Assembly: GCA_030666865.1 (NCBI GenBank)
Contig: DAOUWZ010000002.1
Span: 24,691-88,690, forward strand
From: a bacterium
Lineage (GTDB): Bacteria; Patescibacteriota; Patescibacteriia; S139-126
Length of the DNA stretch: 64,000 bases
Direction of reading: 5' to 3'
Shown: piece after piece, positions 4,398 to 29,269 of the stretch
How the letters are laid out: each line of letters starts with the position of its first letter
Position numbering within the stretch: the stretch's first letter is position 1
Translations under genes and position numbers: made by a program
The notes under the pieces: model-generated
Told to the model about the DNA's origin: nothing
The model's database searches: none
The model's input: the letters and a program-made list of their open reading frames with translations, nothing else

Positions 4398-4715
4398 TTA
4401 TTGTTTAAAAGCAACAGCGTCCTGACCAGTTTGTAAATAATCAATTTTATCGTTTAATACCATCCCAAGCTCTGATACCACTGTTTCAATTCTTGAAAGT
4501 GATCTCAATTTAGCCGTTTCAAAACCTAATTGTTCATTATTTTTTTCCAATTTTTGTACTTGTCTTTCCAAATCTTTCAAATAATACCCTTGAGTAGATA
4601 CCATGCTTATTTGAGACACATAAATAAATACAACTACTCCTAATGATATTAAGAGGGCTATTCTTACGTATTTACTTTTTACAATTTTATTTTTATTTTG
4701 GGCACGACAATGCAT
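4398..4715 (-). CDS. ftsL: Cell division protein FtsL-like (septum formation initiator family).
   Basis: A 105-aa protein with one TM segment followed by a coiled coil, positioned between rsmH and ftsI. Confidence 0.55.
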   Translation of the reverse strand: MHCRAQNKNKIVKSKYVRIALLISLGVVVFIYVSQISMVSTQGYYLKDLERQVQKLEKNNEQLGFETAKLRSLSRIETVVSELGMVLNDKIDYLQTGQDAVAFKQ

Positions 4716-4739
4716 GGATTTATAAATATGTTTTAATTA

Positions 4740-6379: not shown

Positions 6380-6964
6380 TCATAAATACTTTTCCAAAAG
6401 CAATTTACCTGCTTCTCTGATATCTTCAATACGATAAAAAATAAACTTACCTCTTGTAGTTATTCCCCATTCCAAAATTATATTCTTTTTATTCATTTTC
6501 CTGGCTAATAATATTTTTCTTCTTTCTCTAGATGTTAAAAACTTTTTTTCACCTATCACTTGAAATAATTTCTTATTTTTATAATAATAGCTTGCGTCAA
6601 TCTTTCCATGTCTCATTAAATTAACTATCTCGCCTTCTACTGCTTCTATTATTTCACTATTCTTCTCAATTAGAATTGTTCCGCCTTTCTTCCATTTCCA
6701 TGATGGGTAGACAACAAAAACTGTTTTTCCCTTTTGCTGATTCTGAAATTTATCAATTTGGGCTGGAACCTTGTCTTTAATCAGCCAATTTATATATAAA
6801 TTATTCCATTCAGCACCTTTAATATCAACCGTTCTAATTGTCCAACCAACATAATCTTTAATTTTATAAAATTTATCTAAATCCTTTGATGATTTTACAA
6901 ATTCCCATTCTGGATGAGGCAATCCTGCCTTATCAATTAATTTTAATCCTTGGCAAATTGTCAT
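6380..6964 (-). CDS. Hypothetical protein.
   Basis: A 194-aa ORF with coding-like composition. I recognised no family. Confidence 0.4.
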   Translation of the reverse strand: MTICQGLKLIDKAGLPHPEWEFVKSSKDLDKFYKIKDYVGWTIRTVDIKGAEWNNLYINWLIKDKVPAQIDKFQNQQKGKTVFVVYPSWKWKKGGTILIEKNSEIIEAVEGEIVNLMRHGKIDASYYYKNKKLFQVIGEKKFLTSRERRKILLARKMNKKNIILEWGITTRGKFIFYRIEDIREAGKLLLEKYL

Positions 6965-6989
6965 ATATTAACTTATTTATCTTTTTACT

Positions 6990-7125
6990 CTCCCTCATCC
7001 GCCCTCCTAACGGGCACCTGCCCGCCATCGCTACGCTCTCGCCCGCTAACCGCCTAAAGCGATAGTAATAGCGAGCGGGTAGACGTTAGCAGGCAGCCAT
7101 TCTCCCTAAAGGAAAAATAGCTAAT
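6990..7125. other. GC-rich (~60% GC) structured intergenic element of about 135 nt, a possible small RNA or regulatory structure.
   Basis: cctaacgggcacctgcccgccatcgctacgctctcgcccgctaaccgcctaaagcgatagtaatagcgagcgggtagacgttagcaggcagcc contains several imperfect inverted repeats (ctcgcccgcta/tagcgagcggg, cctaacg/cgttag, gcctgc/gcaggc). It sits between two same-strand genes. Confidence 0.25.
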
Positions 7126-8956: not shown

Positions 8957-11161
8957 TTGAAATCAATGTCAATATCAGATACAATACTAATACATATGAA
9001 CAAAAATGAATATAACAATGCAATATTTCAAATAAACACGCCTAGATCTATAAATCATAGCGATTTTCAAACATTTTCTTTGGAAACAAACATAGATTTG
9101 GGTATTATTTTATTTGGCTTTGAGTCATCCCTGCCAGCAGGTACCCACAATAAAATCAAACAGCTGGCAATCGAATCAATTGATTCTTATTTTATTTCGC
9201 AAAATTTAACTAATCCGCTAGACACATTTGAATCAATGTTATCTGATTTAAATAATAAATTTTTTGATATAGTGAAAGAACAAATAAGTTGGACACGCAA
9301 AATAAACATTAGTATTGTCTTGCTACTAGATAATAAACTGCATTTTGTTAATTATGGCAACAATCACCTATTACTTATTAAACATCGATACATGGTGGAT
9401 ATGATAAAAGAAATGTCAGTCAACTTGCAAGTACCTGGAAAAAAATTATTTGATCAAATGTATTCTGGCTCAATTGAAAACTTTTTCAGATTTACCCTGT
9501 GTAACCAAGCTACATTTGATTACACCTCTTTTGAAACAACAAAAGATATATTAAGCCTACTTCCTATCCAAAACATCCAAACTCAAATAGAACAACTGAC
9601 TACTAAAACACATCGCAATCAGAACATTAGCGGAGTAATAATCCAAAAAATTAATAACGAAGTTCAAGAAAATATTTCTGAGGTCTATAAATCAGATGAA
9701 CAGCCTCAAAATTCTATAGAAAAATTAATTCAAACATCACAAAGAACAAAAAAATTATTAAAACCACAGCTATTACCAGACATCTTGCAAATATTTAAAT
9801 TTTTGAAGAAAAAAGAAAAAGAGACTATTTTGAAAGAAATGCCAGAAAAAAATTTGCCAGAAAAACCTATTTACAAAAGATTTAAATTTTCTAAACCTTC
9901 ATTTAATAAAATACCATTCAATCTTTCCAATATCTTATTGAAAGTCAAACATAAAAAAAATAAAACAATTGACATCGTAAAAAATACTCCGCAAAATTTT
10001 CTTTATCTTTGGAAAAATTTGAAAAATAAATACACTAATCTCCCTAAATCTAGTAAATATCTCCTTAATTTTGCTTTAATTCTACTGCTAGCACTTGCTA
10101 TTAATCTGGTTACTTTGGGCCTAAAACAACAAGCCAAAGAAAAGGTAGAATTTTATGATTCTTTGATTGAACAAATTACCTCAAAACATGATGAAATCCA
10201 AGCAACCATCATTTATGGAGATACAAAAAAAGCCAGGGAACTCTTGATTAATAACATGAATTTGATTGCCAAATTACCGCAGAACAATGAAGATAGGAAA
10301 AATACCTATAATATGCTTTTTGAAACTAATCAAAAATTCATGGACGAGGCTAATAAGCTTTACACTATCCCCTCCCCTTTGTTGCTAATTGACCTTAATA
10401 AATTTAATAATTCGGTTGATCCTATAAATATATCTTTAAATAAAAACTCTATCATTGCCCTGACAAATGAATCAATCATAAATATAAATATTAACACCAA
10501 AGAAATATCTGAACTCTCTTTTACTGACTTTAATATTATCAACCCTAAATATTCAATTCCTATCGATACTATAAACCTAATATATTCTGAGGACGGTAAA
10601 ATATTCAGATATGATACTATTACAAACAGCTTTGCTCCCACAAAAACTACATTTACTTATAACAATAATAAAATTTCTGACATTGGCACTTATAATAATA
10701 ATTTGTATTTATTGGATACTACCGAAAATCAAATCTGGAAAATGAATAAAGTTGGAGATAATTTTTCATCACCAAATAAATGGACTAAGGAAAAATTAGA
10801 TATCTCAAACGCAACCAGTTTTACAATTGATGGTAATATATATATATTAGAAAACAATGGCAATGTCACCAAATTAACTAGAGGTAATAAAAAAGAATTT
10901 AATTTAGAAAAAATTGAACCACCGCTTACAAATACAATCAAAATTTATTCCGAAACTGACATCCCCTACTTGTATATTTTAGATAAAAATAATAATCGTA
11001 TAATTATTTTTGATAAGCAAGGTAAATTAGTTAAACAATACAAATCAGATAAATTCAATAACAGTAAAGATTTTGCTATAGATTATAAAGCTCAAGAAGA
11101 TAGTACTTTGGTATATATACTAGCTGAAAAAAATATTTACCAAATTGCCATTGAGGAATAG
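8957..11161 (+). CDS. Large hypothetical membrane protein of 734 aa, with a cytoplasmic N-terminal domain, a central TM helix and an extracytoplasmic C-terminal domain.
   Basis: There is a single strong hydrophobic segment (YLLNFALILLLALAINLVTLGL) near residue 370. The C-terminal half is beta-rich and low complexity (N/K/I rich). Confidence 0.45.
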   Translation: MKSMSISDTILIHMNKNEYNNAIFQINTPRSINHSDFQTFSLETNIDLGIILFGFESSLPAGTHNKIKQLAIESIDSYFISQNLTNPLDTFESMLSDLNNKFFDIVKEQISWTRKINISIVLLLDNKLHFVNYGNNHLLLIKHRYMVDMIKEMSVNLQVPGKKLFDQMYSGSIENFFRFTLCNQATFDYTSFETTKDILSLLPIQNIQTQIEQLTTKTHRNQNISGVIIQKINNEVQENISEVYKSDEQPQNSIEKLIQTSQRTKKLLKPQLLPDILQIFKFLKKKEKETILKEMPEKNLPEKPIYKRFKFSKPSFNKIPFNLSNILLKVKHKKNKTIDIVKNTPQNFLYLWKNLKNKYTNLPKSSKYLLNFALILLLALAINLVTLGLKQQAKEKVEFYDSLIEQITSKHDEIQATIIYGDTKKARELLINNMNLIAKLPQNNEDRKNTYNMLFETNQKFMDEANKLYTIPSPLLLIDLNKFNNSVDPINISLNKNSIIALTNESIINININTKEISELSFTDFNIINPKYSIPIDTINLIYSEDGKIFRYDTITNSFAPTKTTFTYNNNKISDIGTYNNNLYLLDTTENQIWKMNKVGDNFSSPNKWTKEKLDISNATSFTIDGNIYILENNGNVTKLTRGNKKEFNLEKIEPPLTNTIKIYSETDIPYLYILDKNNNRIIIFDKQGKLVKQYKSDKFNNSKDFAIDYKAQEDSTLVYILAEKNIYQIAIEE

Positions 11162-11724: not shown

Positions 11725-12249
11725 TTAATTCTTAGATTCTTTAATCGCGTTAAGAGTATAGACTAAATTTTTTATATTACCAGATAAAACATTAACGAAA
11801 CCAGCTATTGGCGCCTGGATAGTGCCAACAGTCTTTGCTAATAATTCTTGTCTAGATGGTAAGACAGCTAAATTTTTAATTTCCTCAGTGGTAATAAACA
11901 CTTTTCCCAGTAACCCGCCAAAAATCTGCATAGCTTCGTTATCTTTAGCAAATTTAGCCATTATCTTAGCTGGAGCAACTTCATCCTCATAACCAAAAGC
12001 AACCGTGAGGCTGCCAGAAAAATCATTAATTTTATTTTCATCTAAACCTTGTTCTTTTAAAACAAGTTTTAGCAATCGCTTCTTAGCCATTTTTAGTTCA
12101 GCACCTTCACTACGCAATCCTTTACGCAAGTCTTCGGTTTCGTTAACTGTCAAACCTTGATAAGAAGCAAAAACTGTCGCTTTAGCTTCAGTAAATTTAT
12201 CTGTTAACTCCTTAACTTCTTGTTTTTTTTGTTGTTTAGTTTTCGCCAT
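11725..12249 (-). CDS. rplJ: 50S ribosomal protein L10.
   Basis: N-terminus [55 protein letters not shown], located upstream of rplL. Confidence 0.9.
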
Positions 12250-12480
12250 AAATTATTTCTTGAATTTATTTTCCGCTATTCATTACTTATTGTTTTATGA
12301 ATCTCGGCTATCCACGCTTTGTTCCGCATCCGCGGAACTACGCGGGATTGTAACTGCTAATAAAATTTTCTGCGTTTACAACTTGAAAATTTCAAGCCAG
12401 TTACAAAAAAAAATCTGTTTACAACAGACTTCCAGTTTCTCGACCTTAACCTAAATAAAAATTTAGGATGGAAACCTCGA
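12250..12480 (-). promoter_or_regulatory. Putative rplJ leader (possible L10 autoregulatory leader) containing gttccgcatccgcggaac-type hairpins.
   Basis: A long 5' region with GC hairpins directly upstream of rplJ, where no rplK-rplA precede it. The assignment rests on position only. Confidence 0.25.
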
Positions 12481-12801
12481 TAGGCGCTCACGTGCATTAA
12501 ACCTTTTAATTCTGATGTCTTTATTTAGAAATTAGTAATTAGACATTAGAAATTCACTCAGGTGCCTATTGTCTGTGGTTCTTGTTATTTACAATAATAT
12601 ATATATTATACTATGTCAACCATTAAAATACACAGGTCAAACCTATATATAAAAATACTTGACAAAACTGACTAATTGTACTAATTTAATATAATTTACA
12701 TTAACAAAAATAACTAGACTCACTGTATAATAAATTACGTAACGACGAAATTTTCAGATTTTGAGATAAATTTTTAAAACAATTTTTGAAGTTTAGCTTA
12801 A

Positions 12802-12823
12802 GCCTTGCCTACCGGCAGGCAGG
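12802..12823. repeat. GC-rich palindromic repeat, family A copy 2 (gccttgcctaccggcaggcagg).
   Basis: It shares aagcctt...cctgcctRccggcaggcagg with the copies at 2422, 20850 and 29270. Confidence 0.7.
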
Positions 12824-12997
12824 TAAACTGAAAATATTTTTTAGAAATTTAGCCAAAATGTGTAATTGCAGTAGTAAAATTATTATGCAGTGAGTCTAAG
12901 TAATTAAATTTACCAGAAAGGGGTAAAAAAATTGTATTTTCCAAAATACTAAATGAAATTAAATTAATTATGTTTAACTAACTTTATAGGGGTTATT

Positions 12998-13996
12998 ATG
13001 AAGAAATTGGAAGAATCAAGAGTAGTGATCATTGTGGCCATTGTAGCTGTCGCTATTTTATTCGCTATGATGTTTAAAACAACAGAACAACCACAGTTAG
13101 ATCAAACAATAAGTAAAATTGACAGCCTGATCCACGAAATCCGGATTATACAACAAAACGCTATTGCCATGGAAAATGCCCGGGCAGAAACCACTATGCT
13201 TGATCGCGCCTTTACGCGCGATATGTTTAATCAAGCTGAACAGCTGAAAAATCAAACCAAGCAACCGGAAAAATTGTCGCTTTTGGATTCTAAACTAACA
13301 AACGCTATCAAAAAATGGACAGCGGATCGGAATATTGAGGTATCCGAATTTGTACCAAATGAACTGGAATTAGGGATTGAAACTAATCAATCTTACGATT
13401 CTACTGCGACTAAAACGGAAACAAAACCAAAAATGTCAAAAAAAGAAGCCACCCGGCTACTGCCCATTAAAATGACTGTATACGAAACCACAATCGATAG
13501 CATCCGCATGGTGGTTAAAGATGAAATTTCCGCAACAGCTACACAGTGGGATTTTTGCTATCAAAATAATATGTTTCAGGTGCCGGAAGTGGATAAAAAA
13601 ATGCTGAAATTTTTTCAGCGTATTCCCAGCTCACGCAATTTAGCAATTCATCTTTATTCGGATAATCTCCGATATTATTTTGAAAATAAGCACGACATAT
13701 ATTTTTTTAACAACTTCGCCGACACGACCGCTTATATCATGGATGCGCTATTTCGTTTTCATCAACAAAAAGAAAACGCGCACAAAAAGATACAGCGGGT
13801 AGCCGAACTGAGAAGGATACTATTTCAGCATCCGGAAATAGAAATGAAAATTAAAGGCTATATGGAATGGCAGGGGTCGGATGAACATTTGCAGATGCTT
13901 TTGGATAAAAATCCAGATTTCCTGACATATTTAAGTGGAATTAAACCGGATATTCCGCCATACACCATCGGCTGCACCAACACTATTTATAAATAA
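12998..13996 (+). CDS. Hypothetical membrane-anchored protein of 332 aa.
   Basis: An N-terminal TM segment (VVIIVAIVAVAILFAMMF). GC content is visibly higher than in flanking genes. Confidence 0.5.
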   Translation: MKKLEESRVVIIVAIVAVAILFAMMFKTTEQPQLDQTISKIDSLIHEIRIIQQNAIAMENARAETTMLDRAFTRDMFNQAEQLKNQTKQPEKLSLLDSKLTNAIKKWTADRNIEVSEFVPNELELGIETNQSYDSTATKTETKPKMSKKEATRLLPIKMTVYETTIDSIRMVVKDEISATATQWDFCYQNNMFQVPEVDKKMLKFFQRIPSSRNLAIHLYSDNLRYYFENKHDIYFFNNFADTTAYIMDALFRFHQQKENAHKKIQRVAELRRILFQHPEIEMKIKGYMEWQGSDEHLQMLLDKNPDFLTYLSGIKPDIPPYTIGCTNTIYK

Positions 13997-14019
13997 TAGC
14001 TCTTTCTGGAAATATATAA

Positions 14020-14041
14020 GGGGTTGCGCTTGCGCAACCCC
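14020..14041 (+). terminator. Rho-independent terminator (ggggttgcgc-tt-gcgcaacccc followed by T-rich sequence).
   Basis: A perfect 10-bp GC stem 24 nt after the stop of 12998..13996. Confidence 0.7.
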
Positions 14042-14269
14042 TTTTAAATTTATTTACACACAGGTCGACCCAGGGAACTCATGGCCGAGAGAAGAGTAGT
14101 GTGTATTATCCCCTCTATCAAGAGGGGTGCCCGAAGGGCGGGGTGTGTTATTTTCTTTAAAATAAATAAATTTTCTACCTACCACTACCTATTACACACC
14201 CCTTTAATTCCCCTCTCAAGAGGGGATTTTTGCTATTAATGTATTCTACAGTTAAAACATAATTGAGGC

Positions 14270-14350
14270 ATTCCCCTCTCCTCCTCGAGTCTGAGTCTCG
14301 GAGTCGATGACCAGAGAGGTGGCCATGAGCTTGGCGAAGCGACGGGGTGT
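14270..14350. repeat. Repeat family B copy 1, which contains ctcctcgagtctgag, the reverse complement of ctcagactcgaggag found at 54754-54768.
   Basis: An exact 15-mer is shared with the region just upstream of dnaE. The ggtcatcg/cgatgacc and aggtggcc motifs are also shared. Confidence 0.7.
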
Positions 14351-14421
14351 ATTATCCCTCTTGATGTATATTAACCTAATCACTATTTATAAATATAAAC
14401 CAATAATAATATTATCCTGCT

Positions 14422-14447
14422 TTGTTACGTAGCGTGCTACGTAACAA
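14422..14447. repeat. Perfect palindrome ttgttacgtagc-gt-gctacgtaacaa. The GTTACGTAGC motif also recurs at 47194-47229.
   Basis: Read directly from the sequence. Confidence 0.7.
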
Positions 14448-14490
14448 GGTAAGTAGCAAAATTTTTGTAAACTAAATTTCTATGTTCAAA

Positions 14491-14522
14491 TCGTAGGGTA
14501 CACATATATGTGTACCCTACGA
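14491..14522. terminator. Hairpin tcgtagggtaca-catatatg-tgtaccctacga, the terminator for the PEGA lipoprotein gene.
   Basis: A 12-bp perfect stem. A near-identical stem (gtagggtaca/tgtaccctac) occurs at 18348-18377. Confidence 0.65.
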
Positions 14523-14596
14523 TATTATTAAATGAAAAACCTGGAACAACGTTCTGTTCCAGGCTTTCCCTCCTTTATTTTAAAATAAACTAAAAG

Positions 14597-17392
14597 TTAA
14601 AAAACATAGTTACGGATTACTCCCTTTCGGATGTAAGTCGCGGCATAGGCACAACCACCGTCACCCCAAACTTTGGCAACAACGACAATGTTTCGCTCTT
14701 CCCACTGCAAATCATTCATATAGAACGACTGGACTTCAGATTCGTCCAAAGTGAGTGGGAAACGACTATCAACTGACAATGGAAAGACCGCTATACGACC
14801 TCCCGTCGCATATTCAGACTCAAGATTGATTTCGTACTTTTTGCACGAAACCTTCCTTAGTTGATTCGGCTGACCATCATCATAGTCAACCTGCCACCAC
14901 AATTTCGGCGCATACACCGGCGGTGAGATAATAACGGGCTGTAATTCAAAGTACAATTCGTTTACTACGCCCTCAATCGCTTTAAACGCCATTACCACAG
15001 TTTGGTAACCATCAGCTTGCAGAATCACCAAATGCCAACCCGGCTCTACAGCATAATTATAAATCGGCGTAGTGCCAATTTCCATAGAATCCAAGGTTAC
15101 CGTGGCGGTGACATTGCTAGTAATATTAACCAGTGTTTCTCCGGGGCTAGATGGATCCAAATCCTTATGAACAACCATGGAATCACCAGGCACAACTGTA
15201 AAAGCAGAATGCCAGGGTTGATAACCATCAAGTTCATACGAATAAGTATGAAACCCAGGCTGCAGTTTTATCCAACCAGTATTAGTTTGATAATTCTGCA
15301 AATACCCATCAAGATACACTTTGGCGCCTGCCGGAGCTGAACTAAACCGTACCCAGGCATCCAAGGTGGGATTTATATACCCGCCTTTGACATAAACCTT
15401 GATAGTTTTATGGGTAATTCCGCCAGGCCCAGATACTTCCAGCGTATAATAATACACTCCAGAAGCTTCCTTAACTTCAGTAACAGACCCGTTAGTCGGC
15501 ACAATACCGATTCCGGAAATAACCGCACTGGTAGCGCCAGAGGAAGTCCACTGCAAAGTAAAAGGTTCGCCAGCCATAGCGGTATCAGGTCCGGTAAATA
15601 AATTAATAACAACCGGATCCGGACTGTCAATAAAATTGAAAGTCAAAGTCTTAAGTTCACCCGAATTGAGCTTCACCCAATTTTTTTGATCAACATAGCC
15701 CGTACGAGTAACCTTAATTTCTAAAACTTGATTGGCGATAATAGTAAACACGTTATCCGTATCACCGACATAGGATCCGTTGATGTAAATCTTAGATCCG
15801 CCGCCCTTATTATCCTTAATCGCCAGCTGCGCTTCATTGTCTTGTAGTTTCTCTTTAACAAAAACTGTAAGACTTTTTGAAGCTTGACCGCCGGGTCCAG
15901 ATACTTCCAATGTGTAAGCGTATTCGCCTGATGCGTATTTAACATCTGAAACGCTACCGGAAGTCGTAACTGGTCCAATACCATTAATAATAGCATTATC
16001 AGCGCCAGAAGATGCCCAGCTTAAGGTAAATACTTCATCGGCTTCTACAGTATCCGGTCCAGTGAATGATCGAATAACAACCGGATCCGGACTGTCAATA
16101 AAATTGAAAGTCAAAGTCTTTAATTCCCCGGCAGACAGTTTTACCCAATCCTTTTGATCGGCGTAACCATCACGGGTAACTTTAATTTCGTGGATCTGAT
16201 CGGCTATAACGGTAAAATAACTATTCGTATTACCAACGTAATTACCGTCAATCTCAACCCGAGATCCGCCATCTTTATTATCCATAACCGCGACTTCTGC
16301 AGTATTATCCGGTAATTTCACCAGATAAACTGTGGACAGAATAGCGGTTTGTCCGGCAGTAACGCTAAACGGAATATTTTTAGATTTATAACCGGCTTTA
16401 TGTACTGCAAGAGAATAATCACCGGCTGATAAACCATTAAAATACACCACTTCGCCATCAAGCATAACATTCACAGAATCAGCTCCAGGGTAACTATACA
16501 AAACTACCTGGTCATATCCGCCATCTACTGCCATCATAACCGAACCGGTAGATGGTGATTCTTCTGGAAAATCAAAATGAAATTTAAGTACATTTCCAGA
16601 CTGAGCAGTTTTGGTGTCCTGTATCGTCAAACCATTTTTAGAAACAGTAGCTGTGACAGTAACACCAACCTCAACTGAATCATGTGCAGACAAATCAATC
16701 GGCGTTTTACCCTGATAAGAGTAATAACCGTTAGTGACAATATAATTAACTGGATCATTATTCGTAGTAACAACCAATGGCACTTTTTCTTTTCCTGAAT
16801 CAATTTCTTTAGGAACCATTCTGACATCAAGAGCGGTCCGTCGCCCATTTATCACCTGAACTTGCCCATAAAAAGGACGATAATCCTGATGAGATAGACG
16901 CACAAAATAATCACCACCTGGTAAATAGAATTTATCAGACGAATATCCGATCGCGACTGTATCCTTGGAATCAGCATTAATAACATAGATATCGGCACCC
17001 TGCATATTCATAGTGTTAACCACAAATATGCCTTGAGTCGGATTATCAGTCAGCTTGGTTAAGGAATTTACTACGAACAACTTCTGCTTATCCGGTTCAA
17101 TCATAAACTTTTCATCCTGAGTATCATACCCAGGGGCATAAGCTTCCATATAAAATTCCTTATTAGCGGGTAATTCCCAGACAGTTGATTCACCAGAATT
17201 TAATAATTTTTCCTGCCCAGTATGAAGACGAATGGTCACTGGAATGGAAAATTTGTTTACTGCTTCCAGCTTTCCGGTTTCTCCATCTGTTACCTGCGGT
17301 CCAGCAATGTTATTCTCCTCATGAAAGGTTGTGCAAGAGGAAAACATAATCACCGCCAGCAAAACCGTTAAAATCACACAAATATTTTTCAT
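14597..17392 (-). CDS. Large secreted PEGA-domain protein of 931 aa, a probable lipoprotein or cell-surface protein with an internal ~160-aa tandem duplication.
   Basis: A signal peptide ending in a cysteine (MKNICVILTVLLAVIMFSSC). PEGA-like motifs include SSAPAGAKVYLDGY, VTRDGYADQ and VTRTGYVDQ. Two near-identical blocks (VIRSFTGPDTVEADEVFTLSWASSGA... / VINLFTGPDTAMAGEPFTLQWTSSGA...) are also repeated at the nucleotide level (15600-16080 and 16075-16560). Confidence 0.6.
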   Translation of the reverse strand: MKNICVILTVLLAVIMFSSCTTFHEENNIAGPQVTDGETGKLEAVNKFSIPVTIRLHTGQEKLLNSGESTVWELPANKEFYMEAYAPGYDTQDEKFMIEPDKQKLFVVNSLTKLTDNPTQGIFVVNTMNMQGADIYVINADSKDTVAIGYSSDKFYLPGGDYFVRLSHQDYRPFYGQVQVINGRRTALDVRMVPKEIDSGKEKVPLVVTTNNDPVNYIVTNGYYSYQGKTPIDLSAHDSVEVGVTVTATVSKNGLTIQDTKTAQSGNVLKFHFDFPEESPSTGSVMMAVDGGYDQVVLYSYPGADSVNVMLDGEVVYFNGLSAGDYSLAVHKAGYKSKNIPFSVTAGQTAILSTVYLVKLPDNTAEVAVMDNKDGGSRVEIDGNYVGNTNSYFTVIADQIHEIKVTRDGYADQKDWVKLSAGELKTLTFNFIDSPDPVVIRSFTGPDTVEADEVFTLSWASSGADNAIINGIGPVTTSGSVSDVKYASGEYAYTLEVSGPGGQASKSLTVFVKEKLQDNEAQLAIKDNKGGGSKIYINGSYVGDTDNVFTIIANQVLEIKVTRTGYVDQKNWVKLNSGELKTLTFNFIDSPDPVVINLFTGPDTAMAGEPFTLQWTSSGATSAVISGIGIVPTNGSVTEVKEASGVYYYTLEVSGPGGITHKTIKVYVKGGYINPTLDAWVRFSSAPAGAKVYLDGYLQNYQTNTGWIKLQPGFHTYSYELDGYQPWHSAFTVVPGDSMVVHKDLDPSSPGETLVNITSNVTATVTLDSMEIGTTPIYNYAVEPGWHLVILQADGYQTVVMAFKAIEGVVNELYFELQPVIISPPVYAPKLWWQVDYDDGQPNQLRKVSCKKYEINLESEYATGGRIAVFPLSVDSRFPLTLDESEVQSFYMNDLQWEERNIVVVAKVWGDGGCAYAATYIRKGVIRNYVF

Positions 17393-17405
17393 TACATCAC
17401 TCCTT

Positions 17406-18173
17406 CTATAAATTGATATTCAGATTAAAATTAATTCCGTTTACAAATTTACTGCTTCCCTGCCATGATCGCGATTGAGCTGGCGCGTAATTGAAATTGG
17501 CATTCAAACGGCCATAGACCAAATTAACACCAATCAAACCGCCAGAAACCTGATAATAGGTTTCGTTAGAAGACACACCCTGTTCTGATCCATGAATACC
17601 GCCGAGATTAAGTCCCAGCCAATTATTCACAAAATAAGTCAACTGACCGGAAAATAAAAATTCCCGAACTTTTTCATGCGGATTTTCCATCTCTAAAGGA
17701 TTTACTCCGCCTTGTAAAAACAAAGCAAAACTTTTCCCAATCGGAAAGGAAATCTGCAACATACCAGCGGAAAGATCTTGATTTTTTCCACCGTACCAGG
17801 TAGCAAATCCGGCGCCCAAATGAATACCTTTCAGAAAAATATTTTCCCTACGGGTATTGCGGATATAAGAACCATAGCGCTCATGCACTACTTCTCCGGA
17901 TGCCAACTTTGCAAAAACTTCACGAAGTTTTGTAGCCGGGGCTTTGATATTAATATCATTACCCTTGCCAACAATAACAATGAAAAAATCCCCAGAACGT
18001 GGCAATAGCCGAAGTACTTGGAATTGGTGATTGGTTTTGATTTGTTCAATCAAAACTAAGGCCTGAGGAGTTAAACTCCCCCGCTCAACCTCCAGCTGAT
18101 ACACCTTTGGACGCTGGGCCCAAACAGATGTAACCAGCAAAAACATTAGTGCAACAAAAATCAATCGTCTCAT
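17406..18173 (-). CDS. Secreted hypothetical protein of 255 aa, beta-strand-rich.
   Basis: A signal peptide (MRRLIFVALMFLLVTSVWAQ) and a Gly/Asn-rich C-terminal half with alternating hydrophobic residues. It lies 14 nt downstream of the PEGA gene. Confidence 0.5.
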   Translation of the reverse strand: MRRLIFVALMFLLVTSVWAQRPKVYQLEVERGSLTPQALVLIEQIKTNHQFQVLRLLPRSGDFFIVIVGKGNDINIKAPATKLREVFAKLASGEVVHERYGSYIRNTRRENIFLKGIHLGAGFATWYGGKNQDLSAGMLQISFPIGKSFALFLQGGVNPLEMENPHEKVREFLFSGQLTYFVNNWLGLNLGGIHGSEQGVSSNETYYQVSGGLIGVNLVYGRLNANFNYAPAQSRSWQGSSKFVNGINFNLNINL

Positions 18174-18347
18174 GACGACTCCTTTCTTGGTTAATTTAAC
18201 TATTAGTTAATTATTTTCTTCAATTTTTAAAGCAACAAATAAGGGATTGTTTCCCTTGAGATTTCATAAAAGAATAACATAAATGGTCTAGTTTGTCAAT
18301 AACAAAATGATCGCTAAAATTAGCGATATTTATAACAGAAAAACAAC

Positions 18348-18377
18348 TGTAGGGTACAGGCATGCCTGTACCCTACA
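18348..18377. terminator. Hairpin tgtagggtaca-ggcatgcc-tgtaccctaca, the terminator for mltG.
   Basis: An 11-bp stem that shares its arms with the hairpin at 14491-14522. Confidence 0.65.
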
Positions 18378-18407
18378 AAAATAAAATCGTAATACCTATT
18401 TAAATAC

Positions 18408-19409
18408 TTATTTCAAATATTTTCGATTAGCTTTATGTTCATCAAGCGTTTTACCAAAATAAGCTTTGCCCTCTAGTGAAGTCAGAAAAAAATAATAATC
18501 ATTTGCTACCGGATAAATAGCAGCTCTAATAGCATTCATACCAGGATTGGATATCGGTGTGGGCGGATAACCTAAATATTTATATAAATTATATTTTGAA
18601 TCAATTTGCAGTTCATCATAAGTTAAACTTGAATTTTTTCCTCCAGTAGCATAATTCAAAGTGCTATCAGCCTGCAGAGCCATGCCAATTGCTAATCTTT
18701 TCAAAAAAATATCAGCGACAATTTTCATATCCTCAGCTGCTTTTACTTCTTTTTCAACTATTGATGCTAACATAATAACTTCATGAAAACTGCGGTTGCT
18801 ATTTTCTATATCATCTAACAACTGACTGTTCATTCTGATTGAAAATGTTTCCAACATTTTTCTGACAATAGTTTCCACATCTGCGTCAATATAAAAATTA
18901 TAAGTATCAGGAAATAAATATCCCTCCAAGGTTTCATTATTATTAAGATCACTTAAAAAATCAAATTCATCTTTCCATAAACCAACTTTATTCCATTTAT
19001 CAAATTCTGCTTTACTTAAAATTAATTTTTGTTCAAACAAGTAATTGGAAATATCATCAACAGTCCAACCTTCAATAAATTGCAAAATTATTTCCTCAGC
19101 ATTTATTTTTGAAGTAAATAAAACCACTAAGTCCTTAGTACTTACTTTTTCTGGTAAAATATATTTTCCCGCCACAAATTTACTTTCTTTCCCTTTTAAC
19201 CATGAATAAGACTCAAAAATAAACTTGTTGTTTATAATATCTTGTTCAAAAAGATTTTGACTAATCTGATTTACCCCATCGCCTCTTACTACTTCAAACT
19301 CTATCTCTGAACCTATATTTCTAACTTCATTCAAAGATGATAAAAAGAAAAATAGAAAACCAATCCCTCCTACTATAATTATTAAAATTAAAAATATAAT
19401 TTTTTTCAT
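18408..19409 (-). CDS. mltG: Endolytic murein transglycosylase MltG (YceG family).
   Basis: An N-terminal TM segment and the YceG C-terminal motifs LQADSTLNYATGG...LGYPPTPISNPGMNAIRAAIYP. Confidence 0.7.
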   Translation of the reverse strand: MKKIIFLILIIIVGGIGFLFFFLSSLNEVRNIGSEIEFEVVRGDGVNQISQNLFEQDIINNKFIFESYSWLKGKESKFVAGKYILPEKVSTKDLVVLFTSKINAEEIILQFIEGWTVDDISNYLFEQKLILSKAEFDKWNKVGLWKDEFDFLSDLNNNETLEGYLFPDTYNFYIDADVETIVRKMLETFSIRMNSQLLDDIENSNRSFHEVIMLASIVEKEVKAAEDMKIVADIFLKRLAIGMALQADSTLNYATGGKNSSLTYDELQIDSKYNLYKYLGYPPTPISNPGMNAIRAAIYPVANDYYFFLTSLEGKAYFGKTLDEHKANRKYLK

Positions 19410-20849: not shown

Positions 20850-20911
20850 GGAAGGCTAAAGCCTTCCGCCTGCCTGCCGGCAGGCAGACAGGCGGAAACC
20901 TTTAGGTTTCC
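20850..20911. repeat. Family A copy 3, three consecutive GC hairpins: ggaaggc-taaa-gccttcc, then ccgcctgcctgccggcaggcagacaggcgg, then ggaaacc-ttta-ggtttcc.
   Basis: Its core gccttccgcctgcctgccggcaggcag matches the copy at 2422-2455 almost exactly. Confidence 0.8.
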
Positions 20912-22906: not shown

Positions 22907-24505
22907 CTATACTAACGATTTGCCAGTAATTTCATCAGGCGGATTGATTCCTAATAATTTTAATACTGTCGGCGCTATATCGGCTAAAACACCAACTGGA
23001 GTTATTGTGCTTAAATCAAAATCCTCTCCAGCCCGACCTTGTCCAAGCCATTGCTGACCAATCATAACAAATGGTACTGGTGAAGTTGAATGTTCTTTAT
23101 CCACTTCACCACTTTTTAATTTAATAATCTCTTCTGCATTACCATGGTCGGCTGTTACCAGCATAACGCCATTCTTAGCTAATACGCTTTCCGATATTCT
23201 CCCCAAGCACTCATCCACTGCTTCAATACCCTTAATAGTGGCTTGCAAATCCCCAGTATGAGCAATCATGTCAGGTGTGGCATAATTAACTAAAATAAAT
23301 TCATATTTTCCGCTCTCTACAGATTCAGTAACTTTTTTAGTAATTTCATATGAAGACATCTCAGGTTTGGTAACATAATTCGCTATTTTTGGTGATGGCA
23401 CCATAATATGTTCTTCACCCGGAAATGGTTTTTCAATACCTCCATTAAAGAAAAAAGTGACATGTGCATATTTTTCAGTTTCAGCAATATGAACCTGCTT
23501 CATTCCATTGTCAGACAAAACTTTAGCCAATGGCATTGAAACAGTTTCTGGAGGAAAGGCAATATTGTCAGTCAGATTTTTTTCATATTCTGTCATAGTA
23601 ACAAAAAAAATATTTTTACATACTTTTTTTCTATCAAAACCTGAAAAATCATCAAATAAAAATGCCTTTGACATTTCTCTAGCTCGATCTGATCTGAAAT
23701 TAAAATAGATGATAGCATCATTATCATCTACAGTTGTTATTGGCTTTTCATTTCTAGTAACAACTGTGGGAATAAATTCTTCATCAAAAACCCCTTGATC
23801 ATAAGATTCTTGAATAATTTCTAAAGGATTATCTCCTGACTTTTCTGATTGACCTTGAATTATCGCACTATATACTAATTCAATCCGATCCCACCTGTTA
23901 TCCCTGTCCATTGCATAATATCTTCCTGAAATCGTAGCTAATTCCCCCAACCCGATAATTTTCAAAACTTTCAACAAACTAGTAATAAATGACAAACCGC
24001 TATTTTTGGATGTATCTCTGCCATCCAAAAAAGCGTGTATATACAATTTTTTTACTTTGTGCATTTTAGCCGTTTCAATCAAGGCAAATAAATGCTCAAT
24101 GTAGCTATGAACCCCGCCATCAGATACCAAACCCATAATATGCAAACTTGAATCATTCTTCTTTACATGTTCAAATGCATCTATAAAAGCCTTATTCTTA
24201 ACAAATGTTCCATCAGAAATAGCTCGAGTTATTCTTGGTAAATTATGATATAATATTTTTCCTGATCCAATAGAAAGATGCCCAACTTCACTATTACCCA
24301 TTTCACCCCATGGTAATCCTACTGATTCACCAGAGGCTTGCAGAGTAAAAGCCGGATAATTTGCAATAAAATTATCATAGTTTGGAGTTTTAGCCAGGAT
24401 TATAGCATTACCAATTGACGGCGGTGCTATTCCCCATCCATCTAAAATTACTAATACTACCGGTTTTGTTATATTTGCTACCATTTTATTATATTTACTG
24501 CACAA
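22907..24505 (-). CDS. gpmI: 2,3-bisphosphoglycerate-independent phosphoglycerate mutase, paralog 2.
   Basis: VVLVILDGWGIAP and the catalytic Ser motif GNSEVGH, full length at 532 aa. Confidence 0.85.
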   Translation of the reverse strand: MCSKYNKMVANITKPVVLVILDGWGIAPPSIGNAIILAKTPNYDNFIANYPAFTLQASGESVGLPWGEMGNSEVGHLSIGSGKILYHNLPRITRAISDGTFVKNKAFIDAFEHVKKNDSSLHIMGLVSDGGVHSYIEHLFALIETAKMHKVKKLYIHAFLDGRDTSKNSGLSFITSLLKVLKIIGLGELATISGRYYAMDRDNRWDRIELVYSAIIQGQSEKSGDNPLEIIQESYDQGVFDEEFIPTVVTRNEKPITTVDDNDAIIYFNFRSDRAREMSKAFLFDDFSGFDRKKVCKNIFFVTMTEYEKNLTDNIAFPPETVSMPLAKVLSDNGMKQVHIAETEKYAHVTFFFNGGIEKPFPGEEHIMVPSPKIANYVTKPEMSSYEITKKVTESVESGKYEFILVNYATPDMIAHTGDLQATIKGIEAVDECLGRISESVLAKNGVMLVTADHGNAEEIIKLKSGEVDKEHSTSPVPFVMIGQQWLGQGRAGEDFDLSTITPVGVLADIAPTVLKLLGINPPDEITGKSLV

Positions 24506-24514
24506 TTAGTTTCG

Positions 24515-26089
24515 TTACAAATCCAATTTTAATAAATTTCTTCCTGTCATTTCCCGAGAAGGTTTTACTCCCATTACTCCTAAAATTGTCGGCGCAATAT
24601 CAGCTAGAGCGCCTTTTGGCAAAACCTGTTTATTAGACAATTTTTCATTACTCACTATAAAAAACGGAACCGGATTGGTTGAATGTTCAGTGTCTATTTC
24701 ACCAGTTTCAATATTGATAATTTCTTCAATATTTCCATGATCAGCGGTAATAAACAAAACTCCATCCCGGCTTAACACTTCATCTATTATTTCCTTCAAT
24801 ATTTTATCAATAGACTCAACTGCTTTAATAGCAGCTCCCAAATTTCCAGTATGACCCATCATGTCAGGACTAGCTAAATTTATTCCATAAAAATCATATT
24901 TCTCTAATTTAATATTATCAATCAAATATTTAGCAACCAGCTGAGTAGACATTTCCGGAGTCTGCTCATAAGAATCTACTTTTGGCGATGGTACAAAAAT
25001 TCTATCCTCTCCAGCAATTGGAATGTCATAACCGCCGTTAAAAAAATAAGTCATATGAGCATATTTTTCACTTTCAGCTATATACAATTGCTCATAATTT
25101 CGCAAAACCATGGGCAAGGTACCTTCAATATCAGCTGAAGGATAAGCCGTCAAAACATTTTCTAAATCCGGCCCAAAATCTGTCATAGCAACAAACATTA
25201 TATTCTTTAACTTTTTGGTTCTTTTGAATGAATTTTTATTTAAGTTTTCAAAATCTGCTTGAACAAAGGGTTTGGTTAATTGCCTGGCTCGATCAGAACG
25301 TAAATTAAAAAAAATTATGGAATCTTTGTCATTCATCCGAGCAAATTTTTTATTCTTATCTATAGATATTATATATGGACTAATAAACTCATCTGTCTCG
25401 CCATTGGCATAAGCTTCTTTTATAGCTTGTTCGGGTTTTAAAACTACATTACCTTTCCCCAATATCAAAGCGTCATATACTTTCTTTGTTTTTTTCCAAT
25501 CTTTCTTTCTGTCAAGATAAACCCTTCCCATAATAGTAGCGATTCTTTCATTCGGTTGCAAAAATTCTTCTAACTCCCTTAAAAATTTAATACTCGCATA
25601 TTTAGGCGTATCTCTGCCATCTGTAAATAAATGCAAAAAAATATTTTGGATCCCATAACTCCTGATCATCTTAATTAAAAATCTTAAATGATCAGGATTT
25701 GAATGAGCAGAATCTTTATCAGATAAAAGCCCCATTAGATGTAAGTCACCTCCAGTGTTTAAAACATGATCAATAGCAGCTACAAATGCTGCGTTTTTAA
25801 AAAATGTACCATTAGCAATACTTTTATTAATCACTGCTACATCTTGTTTGATTATTCTACCAGCGCCAATAGTCATATGTCCAGCTTCACTATTCCCATC
25901 TTGCCCTGGCAACAAACCAACATCAACTCCTGAAGCAGATAATGTAGTATGAATATGCTCTCTCCATAACATACTGTAAGTAGGAGTTTTAGCCATTTCA
26001 ATTGGATTGTCAGGCTGGTTTTCAGTAATCCCCCAACCGTCAATTATTACCAAAACATAAGGCTTTATTTTTTTTACTTTATTATTCAT
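24515..26089 (-). CDS. gpmI: 2,3-bisphosphoglycerate-independent phosphoglycerate mutase, paralog 1.
   Basis: YVLVIIDGWGI and GNSEAGH. It aligns to the adjacent copy across its whole length (sampled N-terminal segments show few identities) and is separated from it by only 9 nt. Confidence 0.85.
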   Translation of the reverse strand: MNNKVKKIKPYVLVIIDGWGITENQPDNPIEMAKTPTYSMLWREHIHTTLSASGVDVGLLPGQDGNSEAGHMTIGAGRIIKQDVAVINKSIANGTFFKNAAFVAAIDHVLNTGGDLHLMGLLSDKDSAHSNPDHLRFLIKMIRSYGIQNIFLHLFTDGRDTPKYASIKFLRELEEFLQPNERIATIMGRVYLDRKKDWKKTKKVYDALILGKGNVVLKPEQAIKEAYANGETDEFISPYIISIDKNKKFARMNDKDSIIFFNLRSDRARQLTKPFVQADFENLNKNSFKRTKKLKNIMFVAMTDFGPDLENVLTAYPSADIEGTLPMVLRNYEQLYIAESEKYAHMTYFFNGGYDIPIAGEDRIFVPSPKVDSYEQTPEMSTQLVAKYLIDNIKLEKYDFYGINLASPDMMGHTGNLGAAIKAVESIDKILKEIIDEVLSRDGVLFITADHGNIEEIINIETGEIDTEHSTNPVPFFIVSNEKLSNKQVLPKGALADIAPTILGVMGVKPSREMTGRNLLKLDL

Positions 26090-29171: not shown

Positions 29172-29269
29172 TCTTTTTGTTTAATATCCCTTCGTCCCGC
29201 TCAGCGAGACTTCGCTTTTCTATTTCTGTCTATTAATTAGTGTATTTATCAATTAGCTATGGGGTATTA

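Follow-up and report, generated by a model that had tools for sequence, protein, structure and literature searches.

Composition and content of a GC-rich block of putative envelope-protein genes in a variable slot between mltG and rplJ in a Patescibacteria-like bacterium

How did a block of GC-rich genes for predicted surface or secreted proteins come to lie between rplJ and mltG, and do the two near-identical hairpins found there mark its ends? A preliminary description of the stretch of DNA analysed here (64 kb, hereafter the window) had proposed that three genes of a Patescibacteria-like bacterium form a compositional island bounded by a pair of hairpins, and that their products, like other often horizontally acquired and fast-evolving surface proteins, are candidates for host attachment or an S-layer-like role. 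Members of the Patescibacteria live attached to other cells, and it is probably the proteins of their envelope that determine host range and how sensitive they are to phages. To our knowledge, almost no envelope proteins of these bacteria have been characterised.

We measured composition with the 64-kb window as the sole reference. Sliding GC was 0.38-0.43 over positions 13001-18000 and about 0.28-0.36 in both flanks, and the maximal-scoring GC segment spans 13121-18138/18190, with a GC of 0.408 against 0.316 for the remainder of the window. By gene, GC was 0.381 (12998-13996), 0.417 (14597-17392) and 0.408 (17406-18173) compared with a mean of 0.322, and the intergenic flanks at 12250-12997 and 18174-18407 were at 0.285 and 0.286. 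The shift reaches the third codon position: GC3 of the 332-, 931- and 255-aa genes was 0.387, 0.356 and 0.363, respectively, versus 0.240 ± 0.036, which puts all three at the top of the 51 ORFs (Mann-Whitney p=0.002), and GC1 and GC2 were likewise elevated in the 931-aa gene. Arginine codons of the CGN and AGR types stand at 39 : 7 in the island and at 195 : 349 elsewhere (Fisher p=1e-10), that is, a CGN share of 85% versus 36%; the AGA fraction is 0.09 versus 0.49. The codons CTG, CCG, CAG and TGC are overused in the island and ATA and AGA are underused. With a Karlin-type codon-bias z-score, dnaE and several plus-strand genes came out as extreme as the island, and after this control the score was dropped as a discriminator. 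The higher GC proposed for the three genes is thus borne out (0.41 versus 0.32), with deviations in GC, GC3 and arginine codons if not in the generic codon score, and the three genes form a single, compositionally foreign, GC-rich block.

The block lies between two conserved minus-strand genes. On its left, rplJ, encoding ribosomal protein L10 (11725-12249; Pfam Ribosomal_L10, E=2.5e-24), is preceded by an L10 leader (12397-12596, minus strand; Rfam L10_leader, E=1e-3, 36.8 bits against a gathering score of 44) and a sigma-70-like promoter of this leader (12591-12619, minus strand; TTGACA-17-TATTGT). Leader and promoter (12397-12619) are the last native element ahead of the insert. Between this promoter and the 332-aa gene is a MITE-like inverted repeat (12708-12905), whose 29-nt arms are 83% complementary, lie 140 nt apart and have no other copy in the window; it encloses an imperfect (CCTGCC)n palindrome. 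The 332-aa gene (12998-13996, plus strand) is followed by a bidirectional terminator-like hairpin (14018-14043; 11 pairs, both strands) and then, in the spacer between the convergent genes, by a strongly structured non-coding segment with a GC of 0.46 (14055-14365; fold z-scores: plus strand -4.2, minus strand -5.8), which matched nothing in Rfam at E<=10 and has no homologue among the loci compared. Further right is the palindrome TTGTTACGTAGC-GT-GCTACGTAACAA (14422-14447; related copy at 47206-47229), and then the intrinsic terminator assigned to the 255/931 operon (14540-14566, minus strand), with a stem at 14540-14563, CCTGGAACA...TGTTCCAGG, followed on the minus strand by TTTTTC. The genes for the 931-aa (14597-17392) and 255-aa proteins (17406-18173), both on the minus strand, would be transcribed as one operon from a promoter-like site at 18299-18271 (18271-18299, minus strand; TTGACA-17-TATTCT, extended TG) to the terminator at 14566-14540, the 255-aa gene being the first; an AAGGAG ribosome-binding site precedes the ATG. 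On the right, the conserved flank is formed by mltG of the YceG family (18408-19409, minus strand; Pfam YceG, E=1.6e-74). None of the 51 window ORFs has an integrase, transposase or recombinase domain in Pfam, and no tRNA-linked att site was found by the island, the window's sole tRNA lying at 812-886.

All three products are predicted, from signal motifs read by eye in the translations, to be exported or membrane-bound and to reside on or in the envelope. The 332-aa protein begins with a transmembrane anchor and has a long predicted helix, the signal peptide of the 255-aa protein ends at VWA with Q following, and that of the 931-aa protein ends in a lipobox (MFSSC; MKNICVILTVLLAVIMFSS-C) which, as we understand it, fits the PROSITE lipoprotein pattern PS51257. 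The 931-aa lipoprotein matches Pfam PEGA (PF08308; E=8e-35, 119 bits against a cut-off of 20.8) in four stretches as well as CarboxypepD_reg (1.4e-10), and the PEGA match is the sole functional hint towards a candidate attachment or S-layer role. BLASTP and global alignment revealed in it a tandem duplication of a module of ~155 aa (15386-16300, minus strand; residues 365-519 and 520-669), consisting of a PEGA domain and the beta-rich region that follows. The two module copies share 66% amino acid identity (E=7e-73) and 65% DNA identity, including a 48-nt exact common word, and TRF did not report the duplication (465/450 nt) because the copies are too diverged.

Homologues of the three products were sought in protein sets of 5.8 billion and 1.84 billion. 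The 931-aa protein has no full-length homologue, its best non-self matches being ~25% identical and confined to PEGA domains, and no PDB sequence relative. The 255-aa protein matched only itself in the protein searches and had no Pfam, NCBIfam, PHROG or PDB match; the 332-aa protein matched only itself among the 1.84 billion representatives, with a weak, sub-threshold Pfam match to DUF2972 (21 bits). Matches to TIGR04527 and to a phage 'virion structural protein' (24 bits, in the repeat module) were set aside as sub-threshold noise in the family scans, and single-sequence AF2 models of the 255-aa and 332-aa proteins were unusable (pLDDT 39.6 and 37.0). An outer-membrane-type beta-barrel was considered for the 255-aa protein; no family match pointed to one, and in a monoderm such a closed barrel would not be expected. 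All three are therefore ORFans over their full length, and no donor lineage emerged from these billions of proteins. ORFan status and the module duplication agree with the fast evolution that had been proposed for the products, and their predicted features fit a membrane-anchored protein, a PEGA lipoprotein and a signal-peptide protein, in keeping with the surface or secreted character first ascribed to them.

We then compared the locus with its counterparts in other genomes. The relatives identified through MltG that carry names are Komeilibacteria, Kuenenbacteria, Buchananbacteria and 'Patescibacteria group', which supports the proposed Patescibacteria-like host. Wherever contigs reach, PCMT - NTP-transferase - MltG - [slot] - L10 - L7/L12 is the invariant core order, and longer relative loci extend the conserved order outward on both sides; rplJ itself is syntenic in L010-L015, L037 and L040. 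The three island genes were found in none of the seven related lineages with mltG...rplJ synteny, and the contents of the slot vary. It is empty in three relatives: in L010, with an MltG 60% identical to that of the window, the slot measures 879 bp and holds a 34-aa ORF only, and in L011 (MltG 55%) and L040 (MltG 49%) it contains small ORFs only. In the other four of the seven lineages it holds a non-homologous gene pair that encodes a signal-peptide protein together with a lipoprotein; the products measure about 380 aa and 355-376 aa in L012-L015 and L037, and 443 aa and at least 210 aa in L039. Signal peptide and lipobox are present in these pairs, their GC3 is native (0.18-0.26), and their gene 1 is 23-26% identical between L039 and the other relatives. 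The window's pair has no homology to them by BLASTP or by hhalign (probability <1%), and the convergent 332-aa gene has a counterpart in none of the relatives. A search of genome contigs with MltG returned relatives of <=43% identity only, and L001 was too distant for a slot comparison.

The slot has also turned over between close strains. Over stretches of 11.6 kb and 5.7 kb, L012 and L013 have 99.7% identity, and between these stretches lies 1.8 kb of unalignable DNA, from position 11603 to the stop codon of gene 2; the slot pair has been cleanly exchanged, with breakpoints in the conserved flanks. The sample consists of related lineages rather than a population of the window's own species. 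The segment is thus missing from all seven lineages while its flanks are syntenic, although these relatives are distant; with 49-60% MltG identity in the nearest of them, a phylogeny would be needed to tell gain from loss.

Both hairpins are real and are perfect palindromes with the same arms, GTAGGGTACA and TGTACCCTAC, which occur only in these two copies in the window. Copy 1 (14490-14523, 34 nt) reads GTAGGGTACA-CATATATG-TGTACCCTAC, extended by ATC/GAT, and copy 2 (18348-18377, 30 nt, minus strand) reads GTAGGGTACA-GGCATGCC-TGTACCCTAC, so that the two have different central 8-nt stretches. Copy 2 is located 3' of mltG and copy 1 3' of the 255/931 operon, the two transcription units being consecutive on the minus strand. 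Copy 2 fits an intrinsic terminator of mltG, with a 14-pair stem (18378-18347) followed by TTGTTTTTCT, 30 nt past the stop codon. Copy 1 is not terminator-like, as it has no T-run and lies 3' of the operon's own complete terminator. The claim that the hairpins bound the island did not hold: they bracket only the two-gene minus-strand operon, and the GC-rich block contains copy 1 and reaches ~1.5 kb further left.

Nor are the hairpins private to the island, as had been implied, since the same palindrome family occurs in many unrelated metagenome contigs. The exact 28-mer of copy 2 was found at 14 JGI metagenome loci (about 12 distinct places), and seven more loci share its arms. Altogether, the 28-nt GTAGGG...CCCTAC family appears in at least 17 unrelated metagenome contexts with GC of 0.32-0.70 and unrelated flanks, an identical 28-mer being common to contigs of GC 0.32 to 0.61, and its sub-families differ by symmetric stem changes. 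A sister-family copy at 48093-48121 brings the window to 2-3 copies per 64 kb. One metagenome contig, L019, carries an ORF that matches the NCBIfam model REP_Tyr_transpos (NF047646; E=1.5e-10, 41 bits against a cut-off of 80) and has the HUH and Y motifs, with one palindrome upstream of the ORF and one inside it; the 64-kb window has no RAYT-like gene. In another, L028, two family palindromes flank a single 487-aa gene that is also flanked by ~150-nt direct repeats, and in one repeat copy the hairpin apex is replaced by the 28-mer. The 28-nt palindrome was not found in IMG/VR, PLSDB or INPHARED, and literature matches to the 10-mers were unrelated primers. Other identities were considered and rejected: a sequencing-adapter or junction artefact, because the hairpin recurs, at an unchanged genomic position, in independent runs; a CRISPR repeat, as there is no array; and a LexA-type operator, as no match to its consensus was apparent. 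A pair of att or dif sites was rejected because the hairpins do not agree in their central 8 nt, foreign composition continues past 14490 and the window has no recombinase. The two hairpins are copies of a REP-like 28-nt palindrome family rather than att sites of the island, and their position 3' of genes would be the usual one for REP-type terminator or stabiliser hairpins.

Taken together, the ~5.8-kb block from 18378 (mltG terminator) to 12620 (rplJ promoter) is probably an envelope cassette specific to its lineage, which occupies a replacement hotspot within a Patescibacteria clade, and it was most likely acquired horizontally from an unsampled donor. Composition and absence in relatives are the only grounds on which we infer the transfer, because no donor or homologue was found; likewise, among the features that define genomic islands, deviant composition and absence from relatives are present here, and mobility genes, an att junction and a donor were not found. 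Either replacement through homologous recombination or illegitimate insertion may have brought the cassette in, from a donor of higher GC (about 40-45%) that may be another Patescibacterium sharing the flanks. Contact with the host, phage or predation would exert diversifying pressure on the cassette's products, on or in the envelope.

Could the block instead be a product of assembly or binning, with a fragment of a higher-GC organism joined in at the palindromes? Assemblies do break at palindromes and repeats here: the Logan contig ends at 2432, 14138, 14223, 16091 and 48121 all coincide with one or the other, with those at 14138 (two samples) and 14223 falling inside the spacer segment 14055-14365, and 14224-16090 was not independently recovered by the contigs covering the island. 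The full 931-aa product is on the NCBI contig only, because Logan contigs break in its internal repeat. However, the 16091 break is accounted for by that repeat's 48-nt exact word, and the island DNA is 100% identical in the Logan assemblies of three SRA runs. Contigs from separate runs span both junctions with native genes and enter both halves, L005 and L006 running from mltG through the hairpin and 255-aa gene into the PEGA gene and L007-L009 from rplJ through the 332-aa gene into the spacer, all at 100% identity. The native genes to which the two halves are thus anchored lie next to each other in all relatives. We therefore regard an artefact as highly improbable. Vertical inheritance, in which an ancestral slot pair diverged beyond recognition and acquired its GC excess from amino acid composition or from local mutation and selection, would account for a position, strand, own promoter and signal-peptide-then-lipoprotein layout shared with L012-L015, L037 and L039; the low identity of gene 1 among the relatives themselves and the raised GC1 and GC2 of the PEGA gene also speak for it. 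This reading is quite unlikely given that GC3 and synonymous usage are shifted in all three genes (most clearly in arginine AGA), that GC is raised in the non-coding spacer too, and that the relatives' pairs have native or lower GC3. The profile comparison, the slot that is empty in the two relatives closest by MltG identity (L010 and L011) and the extra convergent gene argue against it as well.

A further alternative takes the hairpins as functional ends, with the two-gene unit at 14490-18378 as a mobile cassette inserted beside the mltG hairpin, leaving one site per end, and with the palindromes (11-6-11 geometry) as substrates of a RAYT-like Y1 HUH enzyme or a Xer-type tyrosine recombinase acting in trans. 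The identical 10-nt arms, present in 64 kb only at the two operon ends, would then be explained, as would copy 1, for which termination offers no explanation; random placement in two adjacent regions of ~32 intergenic ones has a chance of ~6%. The palindromes and direct repeats around a single gene in L028 and the RAYT-like gene that accompanies the palindrome in L019 also point this way. Nonetheless, we consider such a cassette unlikely. The foreign GC continues for 1.5 kb past copy 1, through the spacer and the 332-aa gene, so the hairpins do not delimit the acquired DNA. Their central 8 nt (CATATATG versus GGCATGCC) are unlike those of attL and attR from one exchange, the window is without a recombinase or transposase, other palindrome families in the window behave alike with no adjoining foreign DNA, and the breakpoints of slot turnover in the relatives lie in homologous flanks, not at family hairpins.

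A broader proposal is that the palindromes are a cross-phylum REP-like mobile element that is spread by a RAYT-like Y1 transposase carrying the palindrome within its own coding sequence (as in L019), inserts into hairpin apices at the 3' ends of genes (as in L028) and aids the capture or exchange of envelope cassettes at hotspots. This we hold to be doubtful. If true, the element would have colonised even the reduced genomes of Patescibacteria, and episymbionts would have in the mltG-rplJ slot a programmable locus for surface variation, with beta-rich proteins directed at the host envelope among its possible products. An identical 28-nt palindrome across very different GC, once with a REP-transposase-like gene, is notable in itself, as REP families are usually lineage-restricted. 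On the reading that we prefer, in which a replacement hotspot holds a lineage-specific cassette, there is nothing out of the ordinary about the island itself as a flexible genomic islet. The mltG-rplJ hotspot is defined and comparably positioned, with lineages keeping different pairs of secreted protein and lipoprotein and near-identical strains swapping them, and it offers a practical handle on surface diversification in uncultured episymbionts through metagenomic population genetics, metaproteomics and expression in cultivable relatives.

Several known systems resemble parts of this locus. Modules flanked by Xer/dif sites include IMEX elements and the pdif modules of Acinetobacter plasmids. 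They likewise have 28-bp sites with an 11-6-11 dyad at both ends of a small, recombinase-free gene module. Unlike them, the window has perfectly symmetric arms (dif arms are not), unrelated central regions, foreign DNA that passes one site and no Xer gene, and its palindromes bear no evident likeness to known dif consensus sequences. The Pfam description of PEGA notes a similarity to S-layer proteins. The window's protein resembles PEGA envelope proteins in its four above-threshold PEGA stretches, its CarboxypepD_reg-like beta-sandwich and its N-terminal export signal, and it differs in its predicted lipid anchor, its 931-aa length, its duplicated PEGA-containing module and a C-terminal ~120 aa without a family match; no full-length relative is known, and a lattice-forming S-layer role would be a candidate function.

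Closer parallels exist for the hairpins and for the block as a whole. REPs and RAYT transposases served as the comparison system for the former (PMC3733652, PMC2817692), and GTAG-tagged REPs 3' of genes, with the GTAG tag unpaired, have been described (PMC3733652). As in these, the palindromes here are intergenic, of 20-40 nt, start with GTAG, lie mostly 3' of genes, form sub-families by complementary stem changes, tend to break assemblies and, in L019, flank a RAYT-like gene with one copy. In contrast to classical REPs, the GTAG pairs with CTAC to give a palindrome that is perfect over 28 nt and tagged at either end, one copy sits inside the RAYT-like ORF, and the window has 2-3 copies and no RAYT rather than a high copy number; classical families are species- or genus-restricted, whereas the same 28-mer is found here across contigs of GC 0.32 to 0.61. 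With regard to the block, genomic islands are common in Patescibacteria (PMC12455944). The window differs from replacement-type flexible islands in its small cargo of 2-3 ORFans without glycan or other biosynthesis genes, in its host of the ultra-small episymbiont type and in a slot that is also found empty. Variable surface-antigen loci for O-antigen, S-layer or pilin are swapped by recombination in conserved flanks. Similar to such replacement-type islands, the mltG-rplJ slot is a fixed site between housekeeping genes, carries non-homologous exported-protein cargo in different lineages and no mobility genes, shows a clean swap of cargo between the near-identical strains L012 and L013 and holds, in the window, a compositionally deviant cargo.

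Between mltG (18408-19409, minus strand) and rplJ (11725-12249, minus strand), the clade of this host has a hotspot at which envelope-protein cargo is replaced, and the cargo found there in the window is lineage-specific and compositionally foreign. The block comprises genes for a 332-aa protein (12998-13996, plus strand), a 931-aa PEGA protein (14597-17392, minus strand) and a 255-aa protein (17406-18173, minus strand). The preliminary description held these genes to be richer in GC than their flanks, and sliding GC, gene GC, GC3 and arginine codon choice all bear this out. Sliding GC forms a single plateau of 0.38-0.43 at about 13000-18000 against a background of 0.28-0.36, and the maximal-scoring GC segment, 13121-18138/18190, has a GC content of 0.408 compared with 0.316 in the remainder of the window. 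The three genes, in the order above, have GC contents of 0.381, 0.417 and 0.408 (mean of the other 48 ORFs, 0.322) and GC3 values of 0.387, 0.356 and 0.363 against 0.240 +/- 0.036, the top three in the window (Mann-Whitney p=0.002). The spacer at 13997-14596 is likewise GC-rich (0.39, with 0.46 in the subsegment 14055-14365), and the intergenic regions bordering the island have GC contents of 0.285 and 0.286. CGN codons make up 85% of arginine codons in the island (39:7) versus 36% elsewhere in the window (195:349; Fisher p=1e-10); CTG, CCG, CAG and TGC are also commoner in the island, and ATA and AGA rarer.

As a control, an amino-acid-matched codon-bias z-score was computed for each gene in the window. 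The PEGA gene ranked top (10.5), but dnaE (10.2) and several plus-strand genes scored similarly, so this score alone does not discriminate. Strand skew is strong in the window, with GC skew strongly negative over most of its extent (cumulative -25). The plus-strand genes dnaE, thrS and prfA lie as far from the pooled reference in codon usage as the island genes do, which confounds simple codon-bias tests. Separately, a 125-nt GC-rich intergenic patch (about 0.48) was seen at 6985-7110, between a 194-aa ORF and a TsaD-family (tsaB-like) gene.

The encoded proteins match the membrane-anchored protein, PEGA lipoprotein and secreted protein that had been proposed, as far as sequence features can indicate. 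The 931-aa protein has four PEGA stretches (E=8e-35), a CarboxypepD_reg-like domain and a leader terminating in a lipobox (...MFSS-C). It also contains a tandem duplication of a ~155-aa module (residues 365-519 and 520-669, 66% aa identity) made up of a PEGA domain and the putative beta-rich region after it. The 255-aa protein has a predicted signal peptide (...VWA|Q). In the 332-aa protein, a long predicted helix comes after a predicted membrane anchor at the N-terminus. No full-length homologue of the 931-aa protein was found in 5.8 billion proteins, matches being limited to PEGA domains at about 25% identity. The 255-aa protein, and the 332-aa protein in a phmmer search of 1.84 billion representatives, had no full-length homologue and matched only themselves. 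Scans of PDB, NCBIfam and PHROG gave nothing above threshold, and single-sequence AlphaFold models of the 255-aa and 332-aa proteins were unusable (pLDDT 39.6 and 37.0), so a beta-rich, S-layer-like or adhesin character of the proteins is putative.

The island proteins are encoded not only on the 93.6-kb NCBI contig but also in Logan assemblies from three SRA runs, on contigs that match the window at 100% identity. One set of these contigs leads from PGK by way of mltG, the hairpin and the 255-aa gene as far as the PEGA gene; another leads from rplJ across the 332-aa gene into the spacer. Both junctions are thus crossed, and both island halves are therefore anchored to native genes. Contigs of the three runs end inside the GC-rich spacer, at 14138 (two samples) and 14223; another end, at 16091, is the site where two PEGA modules share a 48-nt exact word, and contigs also start or end at palindromes at 2432 and 48121. 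Independent Logan cover extends over all of the island except 14224-16090.

The surrounding DNA is housekeeping in nature, with the mraZ-rsmH-ftsL-ftsI region, rplJ-rplL, glycolysis genes, dnaE, thrS and rpsB-tsf, among others, and no integrase or transposase was found in the window. MltG relatives that bear names belong to Komeili-, Kuenen- and Buchananbacteria and the "Patescibacteria group", which supports the Patescibacteria-like host suggested previously. For the comparison, contigs of relatives were fetched via MltG homologues (49-60% identity to that of the window). To the extent of each contig, every locus keeps the core order PCMT, NTP-transferase, MltG, slot, L10, L7/L12. In longer loci the conserved order takes in PGK, pilin, enolase, two iPGM genes, DUF212 and CAP at one end and, at the other, an opposite-strand ORF of ~710 aa, then a 190-aa ORF, RluA and TsaB. 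The tandem cofactor-independent phosphoglycerate mutase paralogues (22907-24505 and 24515-26089, minus strand) are kept in every relative whose contig extends that far. So is the ~710-730-aa ORF directly after rplL on the opposite strand (8957-11161, plus strand), which has no Pfam domain and has homologues in L010-L014, L037 and L040. In three relatives (L012, L014 and L040) an acetyltransferase gene, absent at this place in the window, separates the TsaD-family gene from the next ORF of 247-262 aa. An L10 leader at 12397-12596 (minus strand) scores 36.8 against a gathering threshold of 44 bits in Rfam (E=1e-3), with a 55-nt insertion in its first stem.

Slot content varies within these syntenic flanks. 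In L010 (MltG 60% identical) the 879-bp slot encodes a membrane peptide of 34 aa, along with short reading frames that are unannotated; L011 (55%) has the same peptide, read from the sequence, plus called ORFs of 68 and 65 aa; and L040 (49%) has small ORFs only. L012-L015 and L037 (50-52%) carry a ~380-aa signal-peptide protein (gene 1), a 355-376-aa lipoprotein (gene 2), then the small peptide and a small-ORF pair, and L039 (51%) carries two proteins, one of 443 aa and one of 210 aa or more. Gene 1 of L039 shares a homologous C-terminal domain with gene 1 of the others (23-26% identity, E=1e-17 to 1e-23). L012 and L013 have identical MltG and 99.7% identity over 11.6 kb and 5.7 kb (17 kb of flanks), with 1.8 kb between them unalignable, from codon ~155 of gene 1 to the gene 2 stop codon (L012 11604-13377, L013 11604-13463). 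The L013 allele resembles those of L014 (76% DNA identity) and L037, both more distant than L012. This is a clean allelic replacement of the cassette with breakpoints in conserved sequence, and the hotspot, with its strain-level replacement, is a side result for follow-up.

The window pair is laid out like those of the relatives: it lies directly after mltG on the same strand, is preceded by a TTGACA promoter of its own, and has a signal-peptide gene ahead of a lipoprotein gene. No homology to the relatives' pairs was detectable by BLASTP or hhalign (probability <1%). The relatives also conserve, after mltG or the slot pair, a gene that encodes a hydrophobic peptide of ~30 aa (...FLIIILVLMYSSKL) and has a terminator of its own (L010 2179-2283, L011 ~5065-5170, L012 ~13472-13560), followed by two small acidic ORFs. 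All three are missing from the window, where the structured GC-rich spacer and the convergent 332-aa gene take the place of the peptide gene. A check for the segment in these relatives found the island genes in none of them, with the slot either empty or holding a non-homologous pair.

The simplest account is transfer from an unsampled higher-GC donor, which may be a related lineage sharing these flanks, with a GC like that of L039 (0.42). GC3 of the relatives' pairs is native, at 0.18-0.26, and 0.36-0.50 in the GC-richer L039. Extreme divergence of an ancestral slot pair would agree with the shared layout, but is less likely because the GC shift reaches synonymous sites, the spacer and one additional gene, and because the slots of the two closest relatives by MltG identity are empty. 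Composition and the slot comparison together support transfer, and with it the reading of the block as a horizontally acquired, lineage-specific surface-protein islet. Such an islet is of a known kind, since Patescibacteria have been reported to carry genomic islands frequently (PMC12455944).

The two hairpins described as sharing arms do so, and both are perfect palindromes, ATC-GTAGGGTACA-CATATATG-TGTACCCTAC-GAT at 14490-14523 and T-GTAGGGTACA-GGCATGCC-TGTACCCTAC-A at 18348-18377. They are not the island ends they were taken for, because the foreign block extends 1.5 kb past the 14490 copy. On the minus strand the 18348 copy has the shape of a terminator, a 14-pair stem then TTGTTTTTCT, 30 nt past the mltG stop codon. 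The 14490 copy has no T-run and lies directly behind the operon's own terminator (14540-14566). Intergenic DNA of the window also has several further families of loop-less perfect palindromes. A second GTAG/CTAC-tagged family (GTA[A/G]TGACAG..., 2349-2376 and 48093-48121) has common 10-nt arms and differing centres. Other loop-less palindromes are of (CCTGCC)n type (2434-2455, 20870-20887, 29268-29295 and about 12805) or of the GTTACGTAGC family (14422-14447 and 47206-47229), and a 44-nt perfect palindrome is at 62184-62227. The non-coding spacer segment 14055-14365 (310 nt) is much more stably folded than its shuffled versions (z = -4.2 and -5.8); long-range pairing occurs in it, as do repeated hairpins of CCCCTCT(A)TCAAGAGGGG, and it had no Rfam match and no homologue among the fetched loci. 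A MITE-like structure at 12708-12905 separates the rplJ promoter from the 332-aa gene. Its inverted arms, 29 nt each, 83% complementary and 140 nt apart, enclose a (CCTGCC)-type palindrome, and the window has no second copy of it.

Both arms around any centre of 8 nt were sought in JGI metagenomes, which gave 21 loci in about 17 distinct contexts. The exact 28-mer of the mltG copy (GTAGGGTACAGGCATGCCTGTACCCTAC, 18349-18376) occurs in 14 of them, or about 12 distinct places, and the other seven have different, mostly palindromic, centres. By our rough estimate, a collection of this size would hold the 20-base pattern about once by chance and the 28-mer essentially never. Locus GC is 0.32-0.70 with the arms and 0.32-0.61 with the exact 28-mer; flanks and neighbour genes are unrelated, many matches lie at contig ends, and some samples are from municipal landfill. 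Variants stay perfectly symmetric (for example GTAGGGAACAGGCATGCCTGTTCCCTAC and GTAGGGGCAATTCATGAATTGCCCCTAC). The palindrome had no match in IMG/VR, PLSDB or INPHARED, and the relatives' loci have no GTAG...CTAC palindrome at all. The wide sharing of the GTAGGG...CCCTAC palindrome is a second side result for follow-up.

One metagenome locus, L028, has ~150-nt direct repeats either side of a 487-aa gene (4560-4760 and 6470-6620), with a palindrome variant bearing symmetric T>A/A>T changes at 4724-4753. At its apex the repeats' long hairpin has TAAAATGCCGTTACTACGGCATTTTA in one repeat copy but the 28-mer in the second, which suggests that the palindrome inserts into hairpin apices. A role for the window hairpins in cassette capture would find a parallel in this locus, and the two window sites sit on adjacent intergenic regions, an arrangement with a chance of ~6% under random placement among ~32; we nevertheless give such a role a low probability. 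We conclude that both hairpins are palindromes of a REP-like kind, and that one lies 3' of each of two successive minus-strand units. In another locus, L019, an ORF with HUH and Tyr motifs (346-840) matches the NCBIfam "REP-associated tyrosine transposase" (NF047646) at E=1.5e-10, under the curated cut-off. A 26/28 palindrome copy lies just upstream of it, and an exact copy lies in frame directly after the HUH motif, encoding VGYRHACTL. GTAG-tagged REPs are found mostly 3' of genes and fall into sub-families distinguished by complementary changes in the stem (PMC3733652); their tag is unpaired, unlike that of the 28-nt palindromes.
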